Below, one piece after another: positions 17,404 through 53,864 of a stretch of 64,000 nucleotides of DNA. This DNA is from Candidatus Woesearchaeota archaeon (lineage in GTDB: Archaea > Nanobdellota > Nanobdellia > Woesearchaeales > DSVV01), in contig JAGVYH010000067.1 in the NCBI GenBank assembly GCA_018303325.1, positions 4,167-68,166 on the forward strand, in the 5' to 3' direction. Within the stretch, counting starts at the first letter, position 1, and the number at the start of each line of letters is the position of its first letter. Below the pieces are notes generated by a model. That model ran no database searches, had not been told where the DNA came from, and saw only the letters and a list, made by a program, of their open reading frames with translations. The position numbers and the translations under genes are program-made.

Positions 17404-18492
17404 ATGGGTGTGATAAAAATTTTAACAATAAAAGTTCCATTAAAAGATGCCAACAAGGTTAAAACAATTCTTATAAGAAACGAGAATCTTGACAACAGTT
17501 ATAAAACATTAAAAGAAGGATTATTTGTTTATTTCCCTGTAAAAACCCTGTTTAAAACAAAATATGAACTCATTAATAAAGAGCTAGAAACACTTGAGCA
17601 TCTGCCGCATTCACTTAAAGATGCACTTAAAAATATTCTTACAAAAGATGAGCTGGAAAAAGTCAAGACAGCATATGATTGTATAGGAGATATAGCTATA
17701 TTAGAGATTGATCGAGAACTCAGAAAAAAAGAAAAAGAGATTGCGAACGCTTTATTAAATATAAGAAGAGATATTAAAACAGTTGTAAGGAAAGAAGGCA
17801 GCCATGAAGGAACATTCAGAGTTCAGAAAATGAAATATCTTGCTGGAGAAAACAGAAAGGAAACTATACATAAAGAAAACAATATCAGATTAAAATTAGA
17901 TATAGAAAAGGTATATTTCTCACCGAGGCTTTCACTGGAAAGAATGAGGATTGCTGAACTTGTCAATACTTCAAAGAGCAGAGAATCAAAGAATAAAAAG
18001 TCAGAGAAAAAAGAAGATATTCTTGTAATGTTCAGCGGATGCGCGCCATATTGCTGTGTCATTGCAAAAAATGCGGCTGAAAAAATAAATTCAATAATTG
18101 GTATTGAGATTAACCCTGAAGGCCATAAATATGGTATAGAAAACATTAAATTAAATAAGCTTGACAATGGGTGCAATATAAATTTAATTAATGGCGACGT
18201 AAAAAAAGAAATTCCTAAACTGGCAAAGATGGGAAAAAGGTTTGACAGAATCCTTATGCCTCTGCCAAAACACGCTGAAGATTTCCTGCCAGAAGCATTA
18301 GCTGTCAGCAAAAAAGGAACAATTATTCATTTTTATGATTTCTTGCACGAAGAAAAGTTTAATGATGCCTTAGAAAAAATAAAAAAAGTGTGTGATAAAG
18401 CAAAAAAGAAATGTAGAATACTGAAAATAGTTAAATGCGGCCAGCATTCTCCAAGAACATTCAGGATTTGTGTGGATTTTGAAGTAATGTGA
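17404..18492 (+). CDS. trm5: tRNA (m1G37) methyltransferase, Trm5/Taw2 (Met-10+) family
   Basis: Class I SAM-MTase of the Met-10+ family. DCIGDIAILE, VMFSGCAPYCCVIAKN, GIEINPEGHKYGIENIKLNK. Confidence 0.7.
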   Translation: MGVIKILTIKVPLKDANKVKTILIRNENLDNSYKTLKEGLFVYFPVKTLFKTKYELINKELETLEHLPHSLKDALKNILTKDELEKVKTAYDCIGDIAILEIDRELRKKEKEIANALLNIRRDIKTVVRKEGSHEGTFRVQKMKYLAGENRKETIHKENNIRLKLDIEKVYFSPRLSLERMRIAELVNTSKSRESKNKKSEKKEDILVMFSGCAPYCCVIAKNAAEKINSIIGIEINPEGHKYGIENIKLNKLDNGCNINLINGDVKKEIPKLAKMGKRFDRILMPLPKHAEDFLPEALAVSKKGTIIHFYDFLHEEKFNDALEKIKKVCDKAKKKCRILKIVKCGQHSPRTFRICVDFEVM

Positions 18493-44641: not shown

Positions 44642-47600
44642 TCAAAACCATTTTCCCAATCCTTCCTGCTTTTCTTTTTCTTTGCCAAAGACACTGTCAA
44701 TCCTGTTTTTTAAAAGGTCTAATGTTTGTCTTGTATACATAGAAACATTAAAGTCTTTGGACAGTTTTATACTGAGATCTAAATATTTCAATACAGATCC
44801 TTCAGATATTGTAAATATTAATTTTCCGCCGCATTTTGTGCAAATACCCCTTAATGGTGGCCGTCTAAACTTTTCATTGCATTTGACACATCTAAATTGC
44901 TGCTGTGAAAATTTTCTAAGGTTTCCTTTCGTATCTTTAATGAAATGTTTGGTAATAACAAGTTCAGCAACATTTGCTTCATCAACAGCTCTTACCATTC
45001 TTGCAATCTCCATTTGTCCGTTTAATTTTTCTTCCATTGAAGGCAGAGATTTATACGCAGAAAATAAAACACCATCATTTATACTTGAAACCGGATGTGT
45101 ATAACCAACTTGTTCATACTGTGTTTCTTGGCCTAATCTGTGTTTTATCTGTTCTATTTTAACATCCCATGGATTCTTGTATTGTTCTGCTGCTTCGTAT
45201 AATTCCAGAGGATACTGCCAAGTTACATCCAATCCGTGCACTTGGTCATCTACTTCAGCAGGATTAAGAAGTGATGTTAAAACCAAAGGTGCGTCCATTG
45301 TTTTCGCTCCTCTTGAATCTGGCAAAAACTGTGTTGAAAAATTTAATAATCCGTCCAACAGCAAAGACACGCTTGCCTCGTCGCCATCACAATCACGCCT
45401 AAGCGAAGCATGAAACAAAGGATGTGCAAACATACCTTGTGTTTTTGAAAAACCAACAATCCGAGCCACCATTCCTGCTGAAATATGAGGTGCTAGTGCA
45501 ATAACCAAATGCCCCACTAAATCAGATTCTGTCTTAAAGTTATAATAAGGTTTTGTAGAGTAATATTTAATAAGCAGTTCATCTATAAAATTACCTGTCC
45601 TGAACAATATTTTGGTGGCAGGCTCTTCCATTGCTTCTGCACCGCCAGGCAAAATAAGGTCTTGTGGTTTTAATTCTAGAACTTGGTCTGGGTCAACCAG
45701 CTCTTTACCATAAATATCTTTGTCATATCCTAATTCTTTTAATCTATTAATATCCGATCCAACTTCTGCTGGCTTGAAGTGTGTAATGGGCAGTTCAGAC
45801 ATATCATATCTGATAGTGCCGTCTTTGTTCACATATAAATTATGTTTTGCTCTCAACATACCTTTAACAAGATGCTCAGGGATATGATTTTTATTGCTGG
45901 TGCCTTTGACACCTTTTATCAAATCAGGATATGTTTTTTCACCAAAAATAGAAAGTGCGCTGTCAAAATAATGTTTGATATCAATCGTTTGTCTTTGGTG
46001 TTTAAACATGTCCTCATTTTTACAGGAAGGGCATTTTTGTTTGTCTGTTTTGCCGCACGCCTTGCAGAAGTATAATTGTTTTGTTTGATTTTTGCATGTT
46101 TCGCATACTTTGTATATTGTTTCTTTCTCGCATTTGGGGCACATGAATATTGGAAAATCTGCTGTTACTTTTTCAGATTCTAAAGCAGACTGAAAACTTC
46201 TTGTTTTCCCGCCTTCTTCTCCCACAGGAAATAAAACTTGAGGTGAACCTGTCATTTTTCTCATCTTTGCCTTTTCAGGCCTGCCCATTCTTGCACCTAT
46301 GAAAGTACCGGATTTATCCTTAAGAATAATCCCTGACAATAAAGTTAGATTTTCTATAATACTCTTGTTCTTGTCAATTTCAAATGTATGTGATGTAATA
46401 ATATGTGATGTGATTGTTGGTTGGATAGTTTCGACGCGAGTATTAATATTGATATTATCTGGCAATAAAGAGTTAAGAATCAATCCATATTGTTTATTGA
46501 AAACTATAAATTCTTTATTTACAAATTGATGAGGACAGCCAATAAATTCAAAAATTTTTTTGATTGCATCGTCATGTTTTACAACTATTTTTATTATTTC
46601 ATCGTTTTCCTTTTGCTCCTTGGTAAAATGCGGATTTTTCCAATAATCCAACAAAAATTTAAGTTCATCATGTGTTATATGATTCCAATGAAAAGTATAA
46701 AATGGGTGAAGCGGAACATTTAATTTCTTTGAAATCAGAAGAGTTGTTGCAGCTGATACTCTTGTAAATAAGGGGTTTTTCATTATTGCTTCTATTTCTT
46801 CAGATTCTAAACCTAATAAGCTGGAAAGTTTATCAATATCAATTGTACCGAATAATTCAACACATTTTTTTTCGACATCCCTTACCCACCATTCTTCATT
46901 ATACCCGCATGGCACTAGCACGTGGCCGTTCTCTGAAAAATCACCATAATTAATAAGTATATCCCCTAAAAATAAGATTGTCTCGACGTCCAGCATTGCT
47001 TTTTTTGCTTGTTCAACATTATCAACCCTTTGCACTGAACCGTCTTTTAATTTGACAACAGGTCCTTCAATAGAATCAGTAACAGTCATTGCTGCTGCTT
47101 TTCCTGGTCTTTCAATTTTTAATTGTGTGCCGACAGCAATATACTTTTTTAGAAGAATCATTGTTGCAGGGTTTATTGATGCCGCTGAAAAACCAGATGT
47201 CCTTGTTCTTCCATATCTTAACCTAAAACCACCCTTTGCCATTGGATGAGTAAGCACAGGTCTGCCAGCAACAAGGTCAGCAATAAAAGTAAAGTTTGGG
47301 GATAATTTTTCTTTTTTCTCCTGCGAAACTGCCTTCTTCGCTTTTATTTGTTTCTGTAGTTTGATAAACTCCCCAAGAAATTCCCATTCAAACCCAAACT
47401 CTTTTCCCCATTGTTCAAGACGTTTCCATAATTTTGGCGCTTTTTGCGAAAGCCCTTCCGCCAAAACAAGGCACATCCCGCCTCTTATCATGTTTGTTTC
47501 TATTCTGGGAAGATCCTTATAATTGGAAACTTCTATTTTTTCCGTCGGGTCGCCTTCTACTTCAATTGGAAGATTTTTTGTAAGAAAATCTATCTCATCT

Positions 47601-48235
47601 GCTGAAGGCAGATATTGTAAATTAGTCACACGCTCATTATAATCAAATATTTCTGTTCTGAACCTTGACATTTCAGCTGGTGATGGATCATATTTTGCAT
47701 ACCCGAATTTTATGCGTAGAAAATCAACAAGCAATAAAGAGAATGCTGCTGCTGTTCCGCCTGCGCCCCTGATTGGCCCGGCATAAAATGGCGCCAGATA
47801 TTCTTTGCCGTCATTGGTTCTTTTGATTTTTAATTCTATGAATCCTTCGAGTGGTGCTGCAACAATACCGCCCGTCTGGTATGCAAATCCTGTCCTTATC
47901 CCCACTTCTATTGCTTCTTTCTGATCTTTAAATTTACAGAATTTCTGTTTTGCAACTTCATGAGCTATTAAAAGAGCGACTCTCCAGTCAAGCGGCGCAT
48001 ATTTTTTTTCCATTTCAATTATCTTGTCTGTGACGCCTGAACCGATTAACTGCGGAGCCACAACACCAATAAGCGCTTCTACACGTTCTGCCATGTTTCT
48101 TGCCAGTCTTATATCTACTTTTTGTTCCGGGTCAAGATTAAGCTTTCTTGCAGTATTAGCTATTGAATAACATAGTTCTAATTCCTCGGAAATATTATCA
48201 AAATATTTTTGCATTTGAATGCTTGCTGCAACCAT
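44642..48235 (-). CDS. DNA polymerase II (PolD) large catalytic subunit DP2
   Basis: 1197 aa, multiple CxxC zinc clusters (CPKCEKETIYKVCETC, CKACGKTDKQKCPSC, CVKCNEKFRRPPLRGICTKCGG). Lies immediately next to DP1. Assigned by length, architecture and synteny. Confidence 0.85.
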   Translation of the reverse strand: MVAASIQMQKYFDNISEELELCYSIANTARKLNLDPEQKVDIRLARNMAERVEALIGVVAPQLIGSGVTDKIIEMEKKYAPLDWRVALLIAHEVAKQKFCKFKDQKEAIEVGIRTGFAYQTGGIVAAPLEGFIELKIKRTNDGKEYLAPFYAGPIRGAGGTAAAFSLLLVDFLRIKFGYAKYDPSPAEMSRFRTEIFDYNERVTNLQYLPSADEIDFLTKNLPIEVEGDPTEKIEVSNYKDLPRIETNMIRGGMCLVLAEGLSQKAPKLWKRLEQWGKEFGFEWEFLGEFIKLQKQIKAKKAVSQEKKEKLSPNFTFIADLVAGRPVLTHPMAKGGFRLRYGRTRTSGFSAASINPATMILLKKYIAVGTQLKIERPGKAAAMTVTDSIEGPVVKLKDGSVQRVDNVEQAKKAMLDVETILFLGDILINYGDFSENGHVLVPCGYNEEWWVRDVEKKCVELFGTIDIDKLSSLLGLESEEIEAIMKNPLFTRVSAATTLLISKKLNVPLHPFYTFHWNHITHDELKFLLDYWKNPHFTKEQKENDEIIKIVVKHDDAIKKIFEFIGCPHQFVNKEFIVFNKQYGLILNSLLPDNININTRVETIQPTITSHIITSHTFEIDKNKSIIENLTLLSGIILKDKSGTFIGARMGRPEKAKMRKMTGSPQVLFPVGEEGGKTRSFQSALESEKVTADFPIFMCPKCEKETIYKVCETCKNQTKQLYFCKACGKTDKQKCPSCKNEDMFKHQRQTIDIKHYFDSALSIFGEKTYPDLIKGVKGTSNKNHIPEHLVKGMLRAKHNLYVNKDGTIRYDMSELPITHFKPAEVGSDINRLKELGYDKDIYGKELVDPDQVLELKPQDLILPGGAEAMEEPATKILFRTGNFIDELLIKYYSTKPYYNFKTESDLVGHLVIALAPHISAGMVARIVGFSKTQGMFAHPLFHASLRRDCDGDEASVSLLLDGLLNFSTQFLPDSRGAKTMDAPLVLTSLLNPAEVDDQVHGLDVTWQYPLELYEAAEQYKNPWDVKIEQIKHRLGQETQYEQVGYTHPVSSINDGVLFSAYKSLPSMEEKLNGQMEIARMVRAVDEANVAELVITKHFIKDTKGNLRKFSQQQFRCVKCNEKFRRPPLRGICTKCGGKLIFTISEGSVLKYLDLSIKLSKDFNVSMYTRQTLDLLKNRIDSVFGKEKEKQEGLGKWF

Positions 48236-48342
48236 TTTAACCCCGATGACTTAAAAAATTTAAACTATGTTTTTTATTTGTAGTTATTTAATTCTGTGTT
48301 ATTATTGAATTATTATTTAATCTCTATTTCATTAAAATTTAT

Positions 48343-50079
48343 TTAAAACCTTAAAACTTTTACTTCTCTAGTCTGCAAATTTACAATTGGCACCCTTGCC
48401 GGTTCTGGTTTATGCCCAACCTTTTCTTGAAATGTTGTTGTGCTCTGCCAGCATGAGCCAGATATTAAAGTAATATGATGATAATTGGCAATACTGGTTT
48501 TATGAATATGTCCTGTAACAAAAAAATCTGGTATGTGAGAGATTACCAAAGGGTCTGAAGCCGAATCTGGGATGTATAATGAAGAAGTGTGTGTCGGCGC
48601 AAGGTGGCGTCTCTGCAATAAAAATTTCATAACCAAATCTGCTCTGTCATAACCGCCGTTGTTTCTTATATAATCTACATTGGAAATGTAATAATCAAAA
48701 CTATAGCCGTGATACATTAATATATCAAATCCTGGAAAAGTGTCGTCGGCGCCAATGTTAACCATCGCAGGATTGCTGACAAAAACAATATTTGGAAGTT
48801 CTAGTAATTGTTTAACAAATTCTCCGCTTAAAATTGGCTGAGGCTCTGATAATCTTGATGCATCGTGGTTTCCTGCGCAGAGAATAATTGTAATTTCTTT
48901 TGGTATTTTTGATATCATTTCAGTAAATACAGAGTACTGCTGATAAATATCTTTTATAATTAATTCTTTGTCCTGTTCAGGATAAATTCCAACGCCGTCA
49001 ACAAGATCTCCGATTATGAAAACATATTTTATATTTTTAGTAAGGGTTTTTTGCTCATCTGAACCCATATTTCCGTTTATCCATTCTATAAATTTTAGAA
49101 ATTTTTCCTCTAAAAAAAATCGTGAACCTACATGAATGTCAGATAAGAACACCGCATACTCTTGGTTTGGTGATTTTTTTAATTCTCTCGGATATATATC
49201 CGGCAATAATATTTTATTCGCAAAAATTACATCTTTGTCATTAAACCCCGCCAAACCGATAACTTCATCTTCAATAATGTTTTTGGCAATTTCAAAAACA
49301 TCAGGCTTTGTTTTGTTGATTACGACGCTGATCTGGCCGGTTGTGTCTTCAATTTTTAAAAGAATATTTTTTGCTTTTGTTATGTTCTTTTCCATTACTA
49401 TGCCTATAATAGATACATTTTCTTTTTCTTTTTTATTGAGAATTTTATTAATGGAAAGCAGATTAACTAGTTCCTGCCTGTTAAGAAGTATTTTTTTTAT
49501 TGCTTCATATCTTTTATTAAAATGCGCAACAAAATCTTCCACATACCTTTTTTTTGACTCGCCGCAATAGGAAAACAAAACTTTAACTTTTCGCAGCGGA
49601 TCCTGTGTTGGGTCTTGTATTTGTGGTATGTTCTGTTTGCTGGTTTGCGAATCCTGATCCTGCAAGGCGGTTAATTTTACTTCGTATTTTTCTATTAAAG
49701 CAGCGGCTATTTCTGCACTACTCTCTGCTTCTTGTTCTGATTCTTGATTTAAGGTTTCTATGCCTTGTTTGTCTTCAAGTGGTGGTTCAAGAATTAGTGC
49801 TGTGGATTGTTGCGATACTATTTGTGGTTGGTTATTTATTTCAATAGCAGATATTTGTATGTTTGGTTGTATGTTAATTGGTTTCTGTTTTAACTTTGAA
49901 ATTTTGGAAAGAGTTAGTGCGTCGAGAAAAAACTGCTCTTCACCCAATTTTACATCAGTCATTGCACTTTCAAAATCAGAATAATTATCATAATTTATCT
50001 GTTCAATAACATCTTCGCTCAGTAAAATACCCCTTTCCATGAAAGCTCTCACTATTTTAGTTTTTGCTTCAGAAGACAT
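48343..50079 (-). CDS. DNA polymerase II (PolD) small subunit DP1 (calcineurin-like phosphoesterase). Start at an internal Met to avoid overlapping cdc6.
   Basis: Metallophosphatase motifs VFLSDIHVG, GDLVDGVG, LCAGNHDASR. OB-fold N-terminal part. The upstream ORF extension would overlap cdc6 by 89 nt. Confidence 0.85.
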   Translation of the reverse strand: MSSEAKTKIVRAFMERGILLSEDVIEQINYDNYSDFESAMTDVKLGEEQFFLDALTLSKISKLKQKPINIQPNIQISAIEINNQPQIVSQQSTALILEPPLEDKQGIETLNQESEQEAESSAEIAAALIEKYEVKLTALQDQDSQTSKQNIPQIQDPTQDPLRKVKVLFSYCGESKKRYVEDFVAHFNKRYEAIKKILLNRQELVNLLSINKILNKKEKENVSIIGIVMEKNITKAKNILLKIEDTTGQISVVINKTKPDVFEIAKNIIEDEVIGLAGFNDKDVIFANKILLPDIYPRELKKSPNQEYAVFLSDIHVGSRFFLEEKFLKFIEWINGNMGSDEQKTLTKNIKYVFIIGDLVDGVGIYPEQDKELIIKDIYQQYSVFTEMISKIPKEITIILCAGNHDASRLSEPQPILSGEFVKQLLELPNIVFVSNPAMVNIGADDTFPGFDILMYHGYSFDYYISNVDYIRNNGGYDRADLVMKFLLQRRHLAPTHTSSLYIPDSASDPLVISHIPDFFVTGHIHKTSIANYHHITLISGSCWQSTTTFQEKVGHKPEPARVPIVNLQTREVKVLRF

Positions 50080-50080
50080 T

Positions 50081-51280
50081 TTACAACCCCATGCTTTGTT
50101 CAAGAGCAGAAACGATTTTAGGAATAAGTGTCTCTGGGATTGGAAGACTAATCTCTCTTGTTCTTCCAAATCTGCCTTTAGATATAACTTTCGCGGTTAT
50201 AATCCCCAACATATCCAACTCACCAATAATATCAGAAACTCTTCTTTGTGTTAATGGCCGTAAACCAACCTTTTCACAGATTTGTTTGTAAACATCATAA
50301 ATTTCGCCGGTAAATATTGCTTCACGTTTTTTAAAATATAAGATAGCATATAATGTTGCCTGCTGTTGTTTTGGTTGTGTTTTTACAATATCAATAATTC
50401 TGTCCTTTTCTATTTTTTCCTCTGCCTCGTCGATATGCTCTATATTAATTGTTTTATTGTTTGCTCTTTCAGCAATCTCTCCTGCAACTCTTAGAAGTTC
50501 TAATGCTCTTCTGGCATCGCCGTGTTCTCGGGCCGCATATGCTGCGCATTTTCCGATTACACCGTCAGACAAAACACCTTGTTTGAAGGCAAAAGAAGCG
50601 CGCTTCTTTAATATGTCTTGTAATTGTAATGCGTTATATGGGGGGAATACAATTTCTTCTTCGCTTAAAGAAGACTTTACTCTTGGATCCATTGTATCAG
50701 TAAACATAAGATCATTTGATATTCCAACTAATGTTACCTGGCTGTTTTTCAATTCTGCATTCATTCTGGTGAGATTATATATTATCTCGTCGCCAGCCTT
50801 TTTTACGAGCTGATCAATTTCATCCAAAACCAGAATAAACTGCATTTTTTGTGTTGTTATTGCATGATTAAAGATTTTGTAGACTTCTTCAGTTGGGAGG
50901 CCAGTGGGTGGTATTTCTTTACCCAATTCTCTGGCTAATTGCGCAACCAGCCTGTATTCAGTATCTGCAACTTTGCTCAGTTTACAGTTTATATATATTA
51001 TTTTTACGGGTAAATTGTTTGTTTTTGCCAGCTCCATCATTTGATTAGAAACATATTTAGCAGTTAAAGTCTTACCTGTGCCTGTTTTACCATAAATAAA
51101 GACGTTTGACGGCTTTTCTACTCTTAAACAAGGCGCCAAGATGTTAGCTAGTTGTTTTACCTCGTTCTCTCTATGGATAATTTCTTCTGGTGTGTATTGT
51201 GACTGTAAAACAGCGCGTTCGCTAAATAAACTGTCTTTTTTAAGAAAAGTCTCGAAAAAACCCTTTAAACTCTTTTCCAT
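50081..51280 (-). CDS. cdc6: Orc1/Cdc6 replication initiator
   Basis: Walker A IYGKTGTGKTLTAKYV, Walker B ILVLDEID, sensor, C-terminal winged helix. Confidence 0.9.
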   Translation of the reverse strand: MEKSLKGFFETFLKKDSLFSERAVLQSQYTPEEIIHRENEVKQLANILAPCLRVEKPSNVFIYGKTGTGKTLTAKYVSNQMMELAKTNNLPVKIIYINCKLSKVADTEYRLVAQLARELGKEIPPTGLPTEEVYKIFNHAITTQKMQFILVLDEIDQLVKKAGDEIIYNLTRMNAELKNSQVTLVGISNDLMFTDTMDPRVKSSLSEEEIVFPPYNALQLQDILKKRASFAFKQGVLSDGVIGKCAAYAAREHGDARRALELLRVAGEIAERANNKTINIEHIDEAEEKIEKDRIIDIVKTQPKQQQATLYAILYFKKREAIFTGEIYDVYKQICEKVGLRPLTQRRVSDIIGELDMLGIITAKVISKGRFGRTREISLPIPETLIPKIVSALEQSMGL

Positions 51281-51473
51281 CTTTAAATTTCCATAAGAAA
51301 CAGAGGTATATAAATATTATTGTAAACTAGTTAGGGACACACCCCTTGATTTCCTATGGAACTTGTGTAAATTTGGTTTAGTTTGTGAATTGTTTTGTAA
51401 TTTTGATGTGTTTAATCAAGAACCAACAGTCACCGCTGCGGCTTAGAAAAGTGGAAAGAGGAATTCTAAAATG

Positions 51474-51537
51474 AGCTTAAAGCATGATAAGCTTAAAGTA
51501 TGATGAGTTTAAAGTATGATAAGCTTAAAGCAGAGCA
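51474..51537. repeat. Four tandem 16-bp repeats, (G/A)AG(C/T)TTAAAG(C/T)ATGAT
   Basis: gagcttaaagcatgat aagcttaaagtatgat gagtttaaagtatgat aagcttaaagcagagc. Confidence 0.8.
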
Positions 51538-51603
51538 TCTTTATTTCTTCTTTCGAACTTCAAATTTTCCTTTTGACGCCAAATATATCTTTGTATTCTT
51601 ATA

Positions 51604-51735
51604 CTTCTTTCCTTCTTTCCTTCTTTCCTTCTTTCCTTCTTTCCTTCTTTCCTTCTTTCCTTCTTTCCTTCTTTCCTTCTTTCCTTCTTTCCTTCTTTCC
51701 TTTTTCCTTTCCTTTCCTTTCCTTTCCTTTCTTCA
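51604..51735. repeat. Polypyrimidine/polypurine microsatellite (CTTTCCTT)n followed by (CCTTT)n, a mirror repeat with H-DNA potential
   Basis: About 12 units of ctttcctt then cctttcctttcctttcc. The ORFs called here (FPSFLLSF... and KKERRKEG...) are translations of the repeat. Confidence 0.9.
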
Positions 51736-52214
51736 TATATTTTTCGTTAATTACAATCTGTGTATTAAACCTCGTGGTTTGCTGTGATTGGGTTGGCGAA
51801 TTTAAGGCTTTTTTTGATTTTATTCTCATTTTAACTTTGTTATTATTTTAAATATTATTTCATACAAAAATATTATGTTTTTGTATTATTTTGATATTAT
51901 ATATAATTTTTATTATTATCTTATTATATTATTATTATAACTCTTTATTTTCTATATTGAAATAAAATACTTATTATAAATATAAAATGTAAAATTATAA
52001 CAAAAAAGTAAAAGAGCAAACAAAAAAATTATTATAATATTATATTATTATTAATATCAAACATAATAAATATAATTAATAATAATCATCAATCATTAAT
52101 TGTAAATAATAAAAAGAAAATTATAAAAATAAATAATCAATTAAAATAAGTTATAATTGTTTATAATTTTGGTTGATGTTAAAGATTTCGATAAAAATAG
52201 TATAAACATATCTT

Positions 52215-52312
52215 AAATGGAATTAGTTTTCGAATAAATTAATTCCATTTAGTATATACAAAAGTCCTTGTTTTTATTCAAAAGCTAAGGACTTTTAGTA
52301 TATAATTTATAA
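52215..52312 (+). repeat. Repeat family D, copy D2 (two hairpins) at the edge of the putative origin
   Basis: AAATGGAATTAGTTTTCGAATAAATTAATTCCATTT, then agtatatacaaaagtccttgtttttattcaaaagctaaggacttttagtatataatttat. Confidence 0.65.
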
Positions 52313-52551
52313 GTAAAACCAGATACTATCAATACAAAAACATTAACAACACATTTTCCACACGCAATCAACGGGTCAGGGGCGCAACTTTAATGTTAAT
52401 CTATTACTTATTAATCATAAAAACCACATCTATTCGAAACATTTTTAAACTATAATATATCTAAAATAATAAAATACACTTAAAATGCATTTAATGTATA
52501 GTTAATATACTTAATTATTAAAATAGATTTTGAAAAAGAAGGTGATTAAAT

Positions 52552-52812
52552 ATGGCAATATCAGATCCATTAGAAGTTGTGATTTTAGCGATTATTGTTG
52601 GTACTTTAGCAGCAATAGTATACAGCTTAAGAGTTCTAGTCATTATGGAAAGAAGAGTAGCTAGAATGGACCTCAATATAGAAAGAATCACACGAAAGAT
52701 TGCTCGAGAAGAAATGAAGATTGAGGAAGAAGAAGCAAAACTATTGTCTGAACAGAGGGTAATAGAAAGAAAGTTGGGTATTAAACCAAAAACAGGCAAA
52801 AAGAAGCGGTAA
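52552..52812 (+). CDS. Small single-TM protein with a charged coiled-coil tail, hypothetical
   Basis: VVILAIIVGTLAAIVYSL TM helix. RBS-like AAGGTGA upstream. Confidence 0.5.
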   Translation: MAISDPLEVVILAIIVGTLAAIVYSLRVLVIMERRVARMDLNIERITRKIAREEMKIEEEEAKLLSEQRVIERKLGIKPKTGKKKR

Positions 52813-52852
52813 TTTATTTTTCTCTTTTTGTTTTTTAAGTTTTTTATTCAAA

Positions 52853-52896
52853 AAAAATGGGTTATAAACCCCACAGCTCTGCTGTGACCCATTTTT
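52853..52896 (+). terminator. Hairpin plus T-tract downstream of the 52552 gene (family E hairpin, CACAGC-TCT-GCTGTG apex)
   Basis: AAAAATGGGTtataaacccCACAGCtctGCTGTGACCCATTTTT. The covarying homolog at 30864..30899 has CGCAGC/GCTGCG. Confidence 0.45.
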
Positions 52897-52991
52897 AAGA
52901 GTAAACCTCCCATCTGAAGCGTTGGCAAAATAAAGCCCGCACTTTGACGTTTGTATTTTTATTCTCAGGAAAGGGGAGATAAACAGAAAGA

Positions 52992-53864
52992 TTAAATTTC
53001 CTTTGAAATCAAGCCAGCTAAATCTATTTTATTTGTTATATGTGGTATAGAATTTGTTGTAATAATCGAATCCGCGCCGGCTTTTTTCAATTTTTTGTAA
53101 GCGTTCTCTACAAACAATCCATGAACACCGATACAAGTGATAGAAATAGGTTTATATTTTTTGACATGTTTTACTGCTTCAATCATTGTGTGTGCTGTGC
53201 TGATTATATCATCAACAATTACCACTTCTTTGCTTTTAATTGAGATATTATTTTTTAACAAAACTTTAACTTTTCTTGAAGAAAACCTTGTTTTTTTGCA
53301 GACAGTAACCTCTGCTCCTGCAATTTTTGCAATTGCTTCTGCCCATTGGTAAGATTCTTCGTCAGGGCCGATAATTATTGGATTGGTATAATCCTTTTTT
53401 ATATATTCACCAATTAAAATGTTTGCTGTTAACACTTTAGTTTTTAGCCTGTAAATTATTCCTAATGATTTATATCTGTGCAAATGCGGGTCAACAGTGA
53501 TTAATTTTGAGAAGAAAGGAGAAATTATTTTTGCAATGGTTTTTGAAGAAATACTTTCACCAGTATGAAACCGCTTATCCTGTCTTAAATAACACAGGTA
53601 CGGCGCAACAAGAATCATTTGTTTCGCTCCGAGATCTTTTGCTGTGTCGGCTGTTAAACATATATCTAATATCTTTTCGTCAGGAATATACAAACTATCA
53701 ACAATAATCACTTGTTTGTTTTTCACGTCTGCATTAAGTTGGATAAGTTTTTCTTTGTCTGGAAACGCTTTTATTTTAACCAGAGAAAATTCACAATTTA
53801 ACTTTTTAGCGAGGTTTCTTCCAAGCTTTTGCGAATATAAAAAAGATAAAACTATTTTTTTCAT
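52992..53864 (-). CDS. prs: Ribose-phosphate pyrophosphokinase (PRPP synthetase). Start at the internal MKKIV; the ORF extends to 53921.
   Basis: PRPP-binding loop VVIVDDIISTAHTM. N-terminal KLIQLNADVKNKQVIIV. Confidence 0.8.
   Translation of the reverse strand: MKKIVLSFLYSQKLGRNLAKKLNCEFSLVKIKAFPDKEKLIQLNADVKNKQVIIVDSLYIPDEKILDICLTADTAKDLGAKQMILVAPYLCYLRQDKRFHTGESISSKTIAKIISPFFSKLITVDPHLHRYKSLGIIYRLKTKVLTANILIGEYIKKDYTNPIIIGPDEESYQWAEAIAKIAGAEVTVCKKTRFSSRKVKVLLKNNISIKSKEVVIVDDIISTAHTMIEAVKHVKKYKPISITCIGVHGLFVENAYKKLKKAGADSIITTNSIPHITNKIDLAGLISKEI

Follow-up and report, generated by a model that had tools for sequence, protein, structure and literature searches.

Does the DNA directly upstream of an orc1/cdc6 initiator gene serve as a replication origin in the Woesearchaeota, and if so, how is such an origin built? 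DPANN archaea have either never been cultured or are difficult to grow, and we found no description of DPANN origin architecture in the literature searched. A preprint rotated Nanobdellota genomes to ORC1, without an analysis of cis-elements (bioRxiv 10.64898/2026.05.13.725050). We examined a 64-kb stretch of DNA from a Candidatus Woesearchaeota archaeon, hereafter the window, in which a gap of 1,271 bp (51281-52551) separates cdc6 from a divergent ORF and lies upstream of the gene order orc1/cdc6-DP1-DP2. A sequence-only reading of this DNA had described a 1.27-kb gene-free region from which cdc6, DP1 and DP2 all read away, and the measured gap and the minus-strand position of all three genes agree with that description. 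No RNA gene was found in the gap by Rfam (whole window at the gathering threshold; gap at E<=1) or by ARAGORN, tRNA genes included. The ORFs within the gap all overlap a pyrimidine microsatellite, and the two that were checked (51516-51851, plus strand; 51599-51829, minus strand) have no Pfam match. A scan for sigma-70 type promoters and terminators, which is uninformative for an archaeon, returned promoter-like matches at the level of shuffled sequence.

The gene products support the identity of the neighborhood. The Cdc6 protein contains the Pfam Cdc6_C, Cdc6_lid and AAA domains and scores 523 bits against the NCBIfam equivalog NF001625 (ORC1-type DNA replication protein; cut-off 501). The start of DP1 was taken from gene calls on identical contigs. 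On the far side of the gap, the protein of the divergent ORF displays, by inspection, a hydrophobic N-terminus and, after it, a region rich in charged residues. It has no Pfam or NCBIfam family; it is 95% identical in the closest relatives (loci L088 and L089), and the ORF lies upstream of cdc6 in 23 loci. The features discussed below are collected in the table.

Table. Positions of genes and putative origin elements in the 64-kb window (PWM, position weight matrix; TRF, tandem repeat search)
Feature	Position	Strand	Description
PolD genes DP1 and DP2	44642..50079	-	downstream of cdc6; Pfam PolC_DP2 and DNA_pol_E_B domains; NCBIfam
DP2	44642-48235	-	1197 aa; Pfam PolC_DP2 N-terminal, central and catalytic domains
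DP1	48343-50079	-	578 aa; NCBIfam NF003118
orc1/cdc6 initiator gene	50081..51280	-	399 aa; transcribed away from the putative origin
Mini-ORB	51287..51316	+	ATTTCCATAAGAAACAGAGGTATATAAATA; 10.3 bits (full PWM), 13.2 bits (dyad-only PWM)
ORB1	51334..51363	-	AGTTCCATAGGAAATCAAGGGGTGTGTCCC; 37.0 bits, best PWM match of the window
16-bp tandem repeat	51474..51532		AGCTTAAAGCATGATA; TRF: period 16, 3.7 copies, 86% matches
Pyrimidine microsatellite	51604..51734	+	(CTTCTTTC)12(CCTTT)6; 131 nt, uninterrupted
AT-rich block	51806..52335		86% A+T over 530 bp; candidate duplex unwinding element
Central palindromic box	51948..51963	-	minus strand ATTTCAATATAGAAAA; clade consensus TTTTCTATATAGAAAA
Two adjoining palindromes	52214-52251 and 52253-52304		long, hairpin/cruciform-capable; just inside ORB2
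ORB2	52354..52383	+	TTTTCCACACGCAATCAACGGGTCAGGGGC; 20.9 bits
Divergent ORF	52552..52812	+	86 aa; gene call on identical contigs; far border of the putative origin

Origin recognition boxes upstream of cdc6

A search of the whole window for the dyad of the origin recognition box (ORB), allowing up to 3 mismatches, gave 38 matches where 42 were expected. Since this is chance level, a PWM from relatives was required. The PWM was built from relatives' sites only, with this genome excluded from training; the training sites were chosen by a dyad regular expression within the same set of loci, and training drew on neither the degenerate distal sites nor the sites of the window nor the downstream background. 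In the 1.5-kb stretch preceding cdc6, matches of at least 13 bits number 1.62 per kb versus 0.032 per kb elsewhere, a ~50-fold enrichment that is partly circular because the training sites came from the same loci. The strict dyad TTCCANNGGAAA is found at 0.56 per kb upstream of cdc6 versus 0.034 per kb elsewhere. Outside the gap, no site in the window exceeds 9.3 bits.

ORB1 corresponds to the ORB-like box that had already been noticed on the minus strand. It follows the ORB pattern of a dyad (TTCCAnnGGAAA) and then a G-string, reading AGTTCCATAGGAAATCAAGGGGTGTG, with the dyad at 51349-51361 and the G-string at 51342-51345. The site is oriented as cdc6, and its dyad faces the AT-rich spacer. 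Published work supports binding of the mORB dyad by the winged-helix domain, with the AAA+ ISM positioned on the flank beside it (Dueber et al. 2011, PMC3089459). Most relatives have an ORB of the same orientation 70-230 bp upstream of cdc6, and 103 of the 111 loci whose upstream sequence reaches 1.2 kb have a proximal ORB within 400 bp. The earlier proposal of a candidate oriC beside cdc6 and PolD gains from both the enrichment and the presence of this ORB at the same place and in the same orientation in nearly all relatives.

In the sequence-only reading, two classic inverted ORBs had been judged not obvious and the architecture possibly unusual, a point that proved incorrect. That reading had covered the region only to 52250, and the PWM search for additional ORB or mini-ORB matches, which it had proposed as a check, recovered both ORB2, beyond that position, and the mini-ORB. 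ORB2 is inverted relative to ORB1 and its dyad (52356-52368) also faces the AT-rich spacer; the pair has its dyads inward and its G-strings outward. An inverted pair is found in 95 of the 111 relatives with at least 1.2 kb upstream. The ORB2 dyad is degenerate (TTCCACACGCAAT) and its score is well below that of ORB1, which counts against reading the locus as an origin. Neither 801 kb of non-origin DNA nor 5000 shuffles contained a match of ORB2 strength (at least 20.9 bits). In L088 and L089, ORB2 is located at -1032 and -1123, respectively, beside the same divergent 86-aa gene, and the distal ORB of another relative, L054, closely resembles that of the window (GTTTCCACACGAAACAACAGGGTCAG).

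The mini-ORB is inverted relative to cdc6 and overlaps its TATA/start region, with the dyad between the TATA box (TTTATATA, minus strand, 51307-51314) and the ATG (51278-51280). PWM matches at or above its score of 10.3 bits have a background rate of 0.019 per kb. A homologue is present in L088/L089 (AGTTCCACAAGAAATGGAGGTATATAAATA, 12.7 bits), which thus share all three ORB-type sites with the window, and in 38 of 156 loci an inverted site scoring 8 bits or more lies no further than 80 bp from the cdc6 ATG. We infer that the mini-ORB is a candidate autoregulatory operator of cdc6.

Together, these results indicate that the locus is very probably an ORB-type chromosomal oriC of Woesearchaeota (Nanobdellota, DPANN), directly upstream of orc1/cdc6-DP1-DP2. 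An oriC is beyond proof from sequence alone; the comparison with ~160 Woesearchaeota/Nanobdellota loci strongly supports this reading.

The spacer, its palindrome and its microsatellite

The two ORBs of the window are separated by 990 bp, 4-5 times the median of 221 bp in relatives, and this distance was counted against the origin reading, as Orc1 molecules so widely separated may fail to cooperate in MCM loading. Across the clade, spacers as short as 85 bp and as long as 1150 bp occur, with ~130 bp in L054. The spacers of L088/L089 are 915-1006 bp long, each with a pyrimidine microsatellite of 272-363 nt, and the part of the window that can be aligned to L088 is the ORB1-promoter module only (~130 bp, 73% identity), the remaining spacer being unalignable. 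The unusual feature of this putative origin is its long inter-ORB spacer, not its ORB arrangement. In each of the 58 loci measured, the spacer was more AT-rich than the locus as a whole. In the window, the AT-rich block contains the AT-richest stretch whether measured over 100 bp, 550 bp or lengths in between, and the ~350 bp of more than 90% A+T that had been put forward as a possible duplex unwinding element (DUE) measures 351 bp at 90.6% (51810-52160). The palindrome pair at 52214..52304 folds as DNA with -23.6 kcal/mol, versus -7.3 +/- 2.2 for shuffled sequence (z = -7.4); by eye, no counterpart was noticed in the L088 upstream sequence.

Within the spacer lies a 16-bp palindromic box, which has its sole match in the window here. 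Of the 161 loci scanned, 46 contain the box, each as a single copy, and in 28 loci it lies between the two ORBs. It is 87-fold denser upstream of cdc6 than elsewhere (0.236 versus 0.0027 per kb). A literature search for the palindrome sequence returned unrelated primer and chloroplast matches only; the palindrome TTTTCTATATAGAAAA is new here, with no prior description found in the literature. The box also marks a switch in strand composition. Purine skew is -0.24 on one flank and +0.25 on the other, and 41 of 43 loci show the switch (p = 3e-8). The cumulative purine excess of the window reaches its minimum at 51958, and the largest pyrimidine-to-purine switch of the 64 kb is located at 51923. 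Furthermore, the purine/pyrimidine tracts in these origins all have the same polarity around the box (16/16), including the microsatellite of the window, whose purine strand is the cdc6-sense strand and runs 5' to 3' away from the box.

This microsatellite had been described as a pure pyrimidine tract of ~130 bp, which matches the measured length; the next-longest run of purines alone or pyrimidines alone in the window measures 26 nt. On contigs with identical Cdc6 the tract is 84, 89, 131 or at least 243 nt long, and other such contigs have a scaffold gap at the tract or end inside it. The microsatellite appears to be a lineage-specific, length-variable expansion of the spacer rather than an initiator site, and it carries to an extreme the strand polarity that is conserved on both sides of the palindrome.

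As a separate observation, origin repeats are a recurrent source of contig breaks in Woesearchaeota assemblies, and microsatellite lengths from short-read contigs should therefore be distrusted.

What the polarity is for can be read in several ways. We tentatively suggest that the palindrome may be a core woesearchaeal origin element that fixes the initiation point, with purine strands running 5' to 3' outward and the microsatellites as selected exaggerations, a proposal that is possible yet rather doubtful. If it is true, the microsatellites would present the pyrimidine strand as leading-strand template on each side, and the benefit of this polarity could lie in strand selection by MCM, in initiation by primase or in stable purine-RNA:pyrimidine-DNA hybrids. 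Either a dedicated factor or Orc1 would then bind the palindrome; Orc1 is a possible binder because the TTTC/GAAA half-sites resemble the ORB dyad, around a 6-bp TATATA core. A preference of archaeal MCM for polypyrimidine single-stranded DNA is not stated by Froelich et al. 2014 (PMC3970758), where poly-dT is present in the crystal and selection of the leading-strand template is proposed, and we regard that preference as speculation only.

The strongest competing explanation, which has an appreciable though minority chance of being correct, holds that the micro- and minisatellites are neutral slippage products and that the polarity arises secondarily from mutational asymmetry linked to replication around a fixed start point. 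Repeat unit, side and length vary among sister lineages, and length varies even among assemblies of one lineage; the wide range of spacer lengths across the clade and the many assemblies that break in this region point the same way. However, a purine skew of +/-0.25 at 30-150 nt from the box in nearly every locus is far above usual mutational skews, and a single polarity in every tract is likewise too strong. Neutral slippage is compatible with the locus being an origin; it would in fact depend on initiation at one fixed place, the box.

It is improbable that the microsatellite acts instead through an intramolecular triplex (H-DNA) that stalls forks or regulates origin opening. An uninterrupted homopyrimidine-homopurine run of this length, and a ~15-fold enrichment of purine/pyrimidine tracts of at least 25 nt upstream of cdc6, are what would favor it. 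Like H-DNA-forming homopurine-homopyrimidine mirror repeats, the tract is long and unbroken and includes a short perfect mirror: the longest perfect arms, 14 nt, lie in the (CCTTT)6 part, a true mirror repeat of ~30 nt. In contrast to such repeats, most of the tract is non-mirror, as the octamer array (~100 of 131 nt) has no mirror symmetry and perfect arms of at most 3 nt near its centre. The best mirror identity of the microsatellite is 75-76% (arms of at least 40 nt) versus 53% expected. Thus the earlier description of the tract as an H-DNA-capable mirror repeat holds for (CCTTT)6 and fails for the octamer array. Tracts in relatives are composed of different units, and those inspected are likewise not designed mirror repeats. 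Moreover, the conserved trait is strand polarity relative to the palindrome, which H-DNA does not predict.

Proposed origin function and its alternatives

For the origin reading, we infer that Orc1 binding, MCM loading and origin firing would take place at this locus. Monomers of the adjacent Orc1/Cdc6 would occupy the two ORBs in opposite polarity, recruiting MCM to the AT-rich DNA between them. Melting and first priming might occur at the palindrome or close by; to either side of it, the strand running outward 5' to 3', of nascent-leading-strand sense, is purine-rich. Occupation of the mini-ORB by Orc1 would repress cdc6 transcription.

The cdc6-linked origins of some archaea, such as Thermococcus kodakarensis and Haloferax volcanii, can be dispensable or dormant. 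This lends some weight to a quite unlikely alternative in which ORB1 and the mini-ORB are only an autoregulatory operator of cdc6, the AT-rich, repeat-filled gap is degenerate and does not fire, and replication starts elsewhere or by recombination. Placement of the mini-ORB between TATA box and ATG, with ORB1 only ~20 bp upstream of the TATA, is consistent with such an operator, as is the lack of a GC-skew extremum at 51-52 kb: in the window, which represents 64 kb and not the whole genome, GC skew follows gene orientation and cumulative skew falls on to 64 kb. An operator, however, needs neither an inverted ORB 1 kb away nor a mid-spacer palindrome or a strand switch, all of which are conserved in the clade. 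In addition, ORC1/Cdc6 is among the single-copy core genes across Nanobdellota (bioRxiv 10.64898/2026.05.13.725050), which argues against the operator alternative and fits one cdc6-linked origin.

The four tandem 16-bp repeats that had been reported in the gene-free region are real as a repeat, with 3.7 rather than four full copies. They were found on same-species contigs only and in none of the 160 other loci, including relatives with 79% identical Cdc6, and unrelated tandem repeats fill the same spacer in other lineages (e.g. L015, L006). The 16-mers thus appear to be a lineage-specific minisatellite that expands the spacer. That they substitute for a missing ORB pair as iteron-like initiator-binding sites, as had been suggested, is highly implausible: they lie 110 bp from ORB1, yet an inverted ORB2 is present, the 16-mers bear no similarity to the ORB dyad, and relatives lack them. 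Overall, the locus has the appearance of an ORB-type origin of canonical design whose spacer, rich in repeats, has expanded to ~1 kb.

Comparison with known origins and implications

The closest likeness in design is to Sulfolobus oriC1, where inverted ORBs flank a DUE with an essential mid-DUE motif, ucm, bound by UBP, and where ORB2-DUE-ORB3 is the model for opposite-polarity Orc1 binding and MCM recruitment (Dhanaraju et al. 2025, PMC12141716). Both loci adjoin an orc1 gene, place inverted ORBs around an AT-rich DUE with an extra ORB toward the initiator gene, and contain a short conserved motif inside the DUE between the inverted ORBs. They differ in that the woesearchaeal spacer spans 990 bp and carries micro- and minisatellites, whereas the entire ORB3-DUE-ORB2 unit of Sulfolobus spans ~130 bp. 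The motifs differ as well; by eye, the 16-bp palindrome has only TATA-N-AAAA in common with the ucm oligo AACCATTATACAAAAGAATT.

In Pyrococcus and other Thermococcales, oriC is located upstream of cdc6-DP1-DP2 and contains long ORBs plus mini-ORBs; these origins were reportedly studied by Myllykallio in 2000 and by Matsunaga from 2001 to 2007. They share with the present locus the order of origin, orc1/cdc6, PolD small subunit and PolD large subunit, a nearly identical ORB dyad followed by the G-string, and a mini-ORB beside long ORBs. Unlike them, the locus described here belongs to a DPANN lineage, has three detected ORB-type sites, and combines a hypervariable purine/pyrimidine microsatellite with a conserved palindrome at the strand-composition switch of its spacer.

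For this phylum, the findings would mean that the canonical inverted-ORB design has been kept while the distance between the ORBs is highly elastic. The palindrome at the strand switch would provide a concrete candidate for where initiation takes place, and would be the counterpart of ucm, which is essential in Sulfolobus origins.

An inverted pair of origin recognition boxes upstream of cdc6

The gap upstream of cdc6 was proposed as a candidate oriC in a sequence-only reading, and the elements listed there, an ORB-like box, a 16-bp repeat, a pyrimidine run and an AT block, were all located in the sequence. No tRNA, no Rfam family at the gathering threshold and no Rfam match at E<=1 was found in the gap. 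The ORFs within it coincide with the pyrimidine microsatellite, and the two searched against Pfam had no match.

Features of the cdc6 upstream region and of its closest relatives (loci L088 and L089; negative positions are upstream of cdc6)
Feature	Position	Strand	Description
PolD DP2	44642-48235	-	downstream of cdc6
PolD DP1	48343-50079	-	downstream of cdc6
orc1/cdc6	50081-51280	-	ORC1-type initiator gene; NCBIfam equivalog, 523 bits (cut-off 501)
Gap	51281-52551		1,271 bp; bounded by cdc6 start and divergent 86-aa ORF
Mini-ORB	51287-51316	+	10.3 bits
ORB1	51334-51363	-	37.0 bits; minus strand AGTTCCATAGGAAATCAAGGGGTGTGTCCC
16-bp tandem repeat	51474-51532		3.7 copies
Pyrimidine microsatellite	51604-51734		uninterrupted 131 nt; (CTTCTTTC)12(CCTTT)6
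AT block	51810-52160		351 bp, 90.6% A+T
Palindromic box	51948-51963	-	ATTTCAATATAGAAAA; sole match in 64 kb
ORB2	52354-52383	+	20.9 bits; TTTTCCACACGCAATCAACGGGTCAGGGGC
86-aa ORF	52552-52812	+	divergent, far side of gap
Unrelated PWM site	17928-17957	+	9.3 bits
L088/L089 mini-ORB	-40		over TATA box; AGTTCCACAAGAAATGGAGGTATATAAATA
L088/L089 ORB1	-87
L088/L089 AT-rich block			between ORB1 and ORB2
L088/L089 microsatellite			pure pyrimidine, 272 or 363 nt
L088/L089 ORB2	-1032 or -1123		inverted; 26.7 bits

A 30-nt position weight matrix (PWM) was built from the ORB-like sites of relatives, excluding the window's own sites and same-species contigs. Just four sites of at least 8 bits were identified in the 64-kb window, and in the gap nothing other than ORB1, ORB2 and the mini-ORB reached 3 bits. 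ORB2 is inverted relative to ORB1, so that the dyads point inward, towards the AT-rich DNA, and the G-strings outward. The earlier reading had found the classic inverted pair not obvious, because the ORB2 dyad is degenerate and lies about 100 bp past the end of the region considered; the PWM search it proposed recovered both ORB2, which completes the pair, and the mini-ORB. The score of ORB2 had no equal in 801 kb of relatives' cdc6-and-downstream DNA or in 5000 shuffles of the gap.

An identical Cdc6 protein is encoded by 21 public metagenome contigs, and the closest genome records, Woesearchaeota/Nanobdellota (DPANN) MAGs, have Cdc6 proteins 55-79% identical to it. The closest lineage is represented by two complete origins from metagenome contigs, L088 and L089 (Cdc6 identity 79%). 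Among relatives, the 1.5 kb upstream of cdc6 holds 1.62 PWM matches per kb that score 13 bits or more, versus 0.032 elsewhere, and for the strict dyad TTCCANNGGAAA the densities are 0.56 versus 0.034 per kb. A proximal ORB in cdc6 orientation was present in 103 of the 111 loci whose upstream sequence extends 1.2 kb or more, and 95 of these 103 also carried an inverted ORB further upstream. The inter-ORB spacer exceeded whole-locus A+T in all 58 loci measured.

Pacearchaeota-like loci (L060, L063, L065, L067, L068, L073, L075-L080) carry, besides the proximal ORB cluster, a very strong extra inverted ORB (33-39 bits), with the tail GGGGTTCCAACAGACA common to most copies. Its distance upstream of cdc6 is about 1.8-2.6 kb, except in L068, where it is 5.6 kb. 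This could be another origin module or the outer limit of a far larger origin. Public records assign two contigs with clear Woesearchaeota-type cdc6 origins (L040, L049) to bacterial bins ('Acidobacteriota bacterium', 'bacterium') and label many others 'uncultured Methanosarcinales archaeon'; the probable cause is mistaken binning or taxonomy.

The cdc6 TATA box (51307-51314, minus strand TTTATATA) lies 26 nt upstream of the ATG, a spacing identical in L088, and the transcript is probably leaderless. The mini-ORB is inverted relative to cdc6, and its dyad falls between TATA box and ATG. Relatives likewise carry an inverted mini-ORB over the TATA/start region, at -10 to -47. This placement, together with the spacing retained in L088, suggests that Orc1 represses its own cdc6 transcript through the mini-ORB.

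A long, repeat-rich spacer

The spacer between ORB1 and ORB2 measures 990 bp, versus a median of 221 bp (interquartile range 152-318, maximum 1150) in 58 relatives; in L054 the ORB sequences are nearly identical to those of the window, yet only about 100 bp apart. The ORB2 position (-1075) and the long layout are shared with L088 and L089, where a divergent small gene follows ORB2, which argues that the long spacer is a sub-clade feature and not an assembly accident. The product of this gene is 95% identical to the 86-aa protein although Cdc6 is only 79% identical. By inspection, the N-terminus of the protein is hydrophobic and the region after it strongly charged; it belongs to no family in Pfam or NCBIfam, and its gene is the divergent origin neighbour in 23 loci.

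The AT block contains the window's most AT-rich stretch at each scale tested. Just inside ORB2, two adjacent long palindromes capable of forming hairpins or cruciforms (52214-52251 and 52253-52304) give a DNA fold of -23.6 kcal/mol (z = -7.4 versus shuffles); they had no Rfam match, and no counterpart was noticed in the L088 upstream sequence.

The tandem 16-mers had been suggested as ORB substitutes. However, the repeat is confined to same-species contigs (0/160 other loci) and other lineages carry unrelated tandem repeats at the same spacer position, indicating a lineage-specific minisatellite instead. Similarly, the proposed ~130-bp mirror repeat with H-DNA potential holds in part. The tract is pure pyrimidine throughout, and no other run of purines or pyrimidines alone in the 64 kb exceeds 26 nt, but the octamer array lacks mirror symmetry: its unit, C2T2C1T3, reads differently when reversed, and mirror identity is 75-76% at best. 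Only the (CCTTT)6 tail is symmetric, its arms being 14 nt long, and thus the H-DNA idea covers about 30 nt at most.

The microsatellite either varies in length or is beyond what the assemblies resolve. Where the flanks are 100% identical, its length differs by contig (84, 89, 131 or at least 243 nt), and other such contigs have a 100-N scaffold gap in it or end within it; in the L001/L088/L089 lineage the lengths are at least 191, 272 and 363 nt. At least three relatives' contigs (L001, L002, L047) stop in AT-rich or repeat DNA a few hundred bases from cdc6, and breaks or N gaps in origin microsatellites or AT-rich DNA recur in Woesearchaeota short-read assemblies (also L083-L086 and others, whose contigs likewise stop a few hundred bp or less upstream of cdc6). 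Repeat lengths in such short-read contigs, the window included, are unreliable.

A central palindrome at a strand-composition switch

While inspecting relatives' spacers we spotted a 16-bp palindromic box, absent from the earlier reading (consensus TTTTCTATATAGAAAA, variant TTTCAATATAGAAAAT, extended symmetry TATTTATTTTC|TATATA|GAAAATAAATA). Exactly one copy per locus occurs in 46 of 161 loci scanned (43 distinct 60-mers), lying between both ORBs in 28. Matches number 0.236 per kb upstream of cdc6 versus 0.0027 elsewhere, an 87-fold enrichment.

Read on the cdc6-sense strand, the box has a pyrimidine-rich flank on its distal side and a purine-rich one on its proximal side, with a purine skew over 60 nt of -0.24 versus +0.25 (41/43 loci, Wilcoxon p = 3e-8); the switch is likewise seen at 30, 100 and 150 nt. 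The window's cumulative purine excess (50800-53000) reaches its minimum at 51958, and the biggest pyrimidine-to-purine switch of the entire 64 kb (300 nt per side) is at 51923. All 16 mixed purine-only or pyrimidine-only tracts that are 18 nt or longer and lie no more than 700 bp from a box share one polarity. They come from 11 loci, about 9 independent lineages, and keep it even though unit and side vary: in the window the tract is proximal with a purine sense strand, in L088 distal with a pyrimidine sense strand. In both, the purine strand runs 5'->3' outward from the box, and the pyrimidine strand would therefore be the leading-strand template for forks leaving it.

Speculatively, outward purine polarity could help MCM or primase choose the pyrimidine strand, or stabilise purine-RNA:pyrimidine-DNA hybrids. 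The MCM N-terminal domain has been proposed to select the leading-strand template, with no pyrimidine preference reported (Froelich et al. 2014, PMC3970758). Alternatively, the polarity may be neutral, a product of slippage together with mutational asymmetry around a fixed point of initiation.

Reading as an ORB-type origin

By sequence-level criteria, the locus is a member of the ORB-type class of archaeal oriC: it is linked to cdc6, has an ORB made up of dyad and G-string and an inverted ORB pair enclosing an AT-rich candidate DUE, and is conserved in relatives. This cis-architecture and its conservation agree with the candidate oriC proposed beside cdc6. Counted against this are the absence of a GC-skew extremum at the locus inside the 64-kb window, where skew tracks gene orientation, the degenerate ORB2 and the 1-kb spacing. 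The gene order origin-cdc6-DP1-DP2 is Thermococcales-like. A search of a library of papers turned up no account of the cis elements in DPANN/Woesearchaeota origins, and searching for the palindrome sequence returned unrelated matches only. Unlike described origins, the spacer here is very long, repeat-expanded and length-variable, with a conserved palindrome at a strand-composition switch and a strict purine/pyrimidine tract polarity.

In Sulfolobus oriC1, Orc1-1 monomers bind with a defined polarity to ORB2 and ORB3, which flank the DUE and are both required for firing, and an essential motif, ucm, lies mid-DUE (PMC12141716). The woesearchaeal box is similar to ucm in position but different in sequence. 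By analogy, Orc1/Cdc6 would bind in one orientation at ORB1 and in the opposite one at ORB2 and bring MCM to the AT-rich interior, and the palindrome would mark the centre, as the site of melting or first priming.
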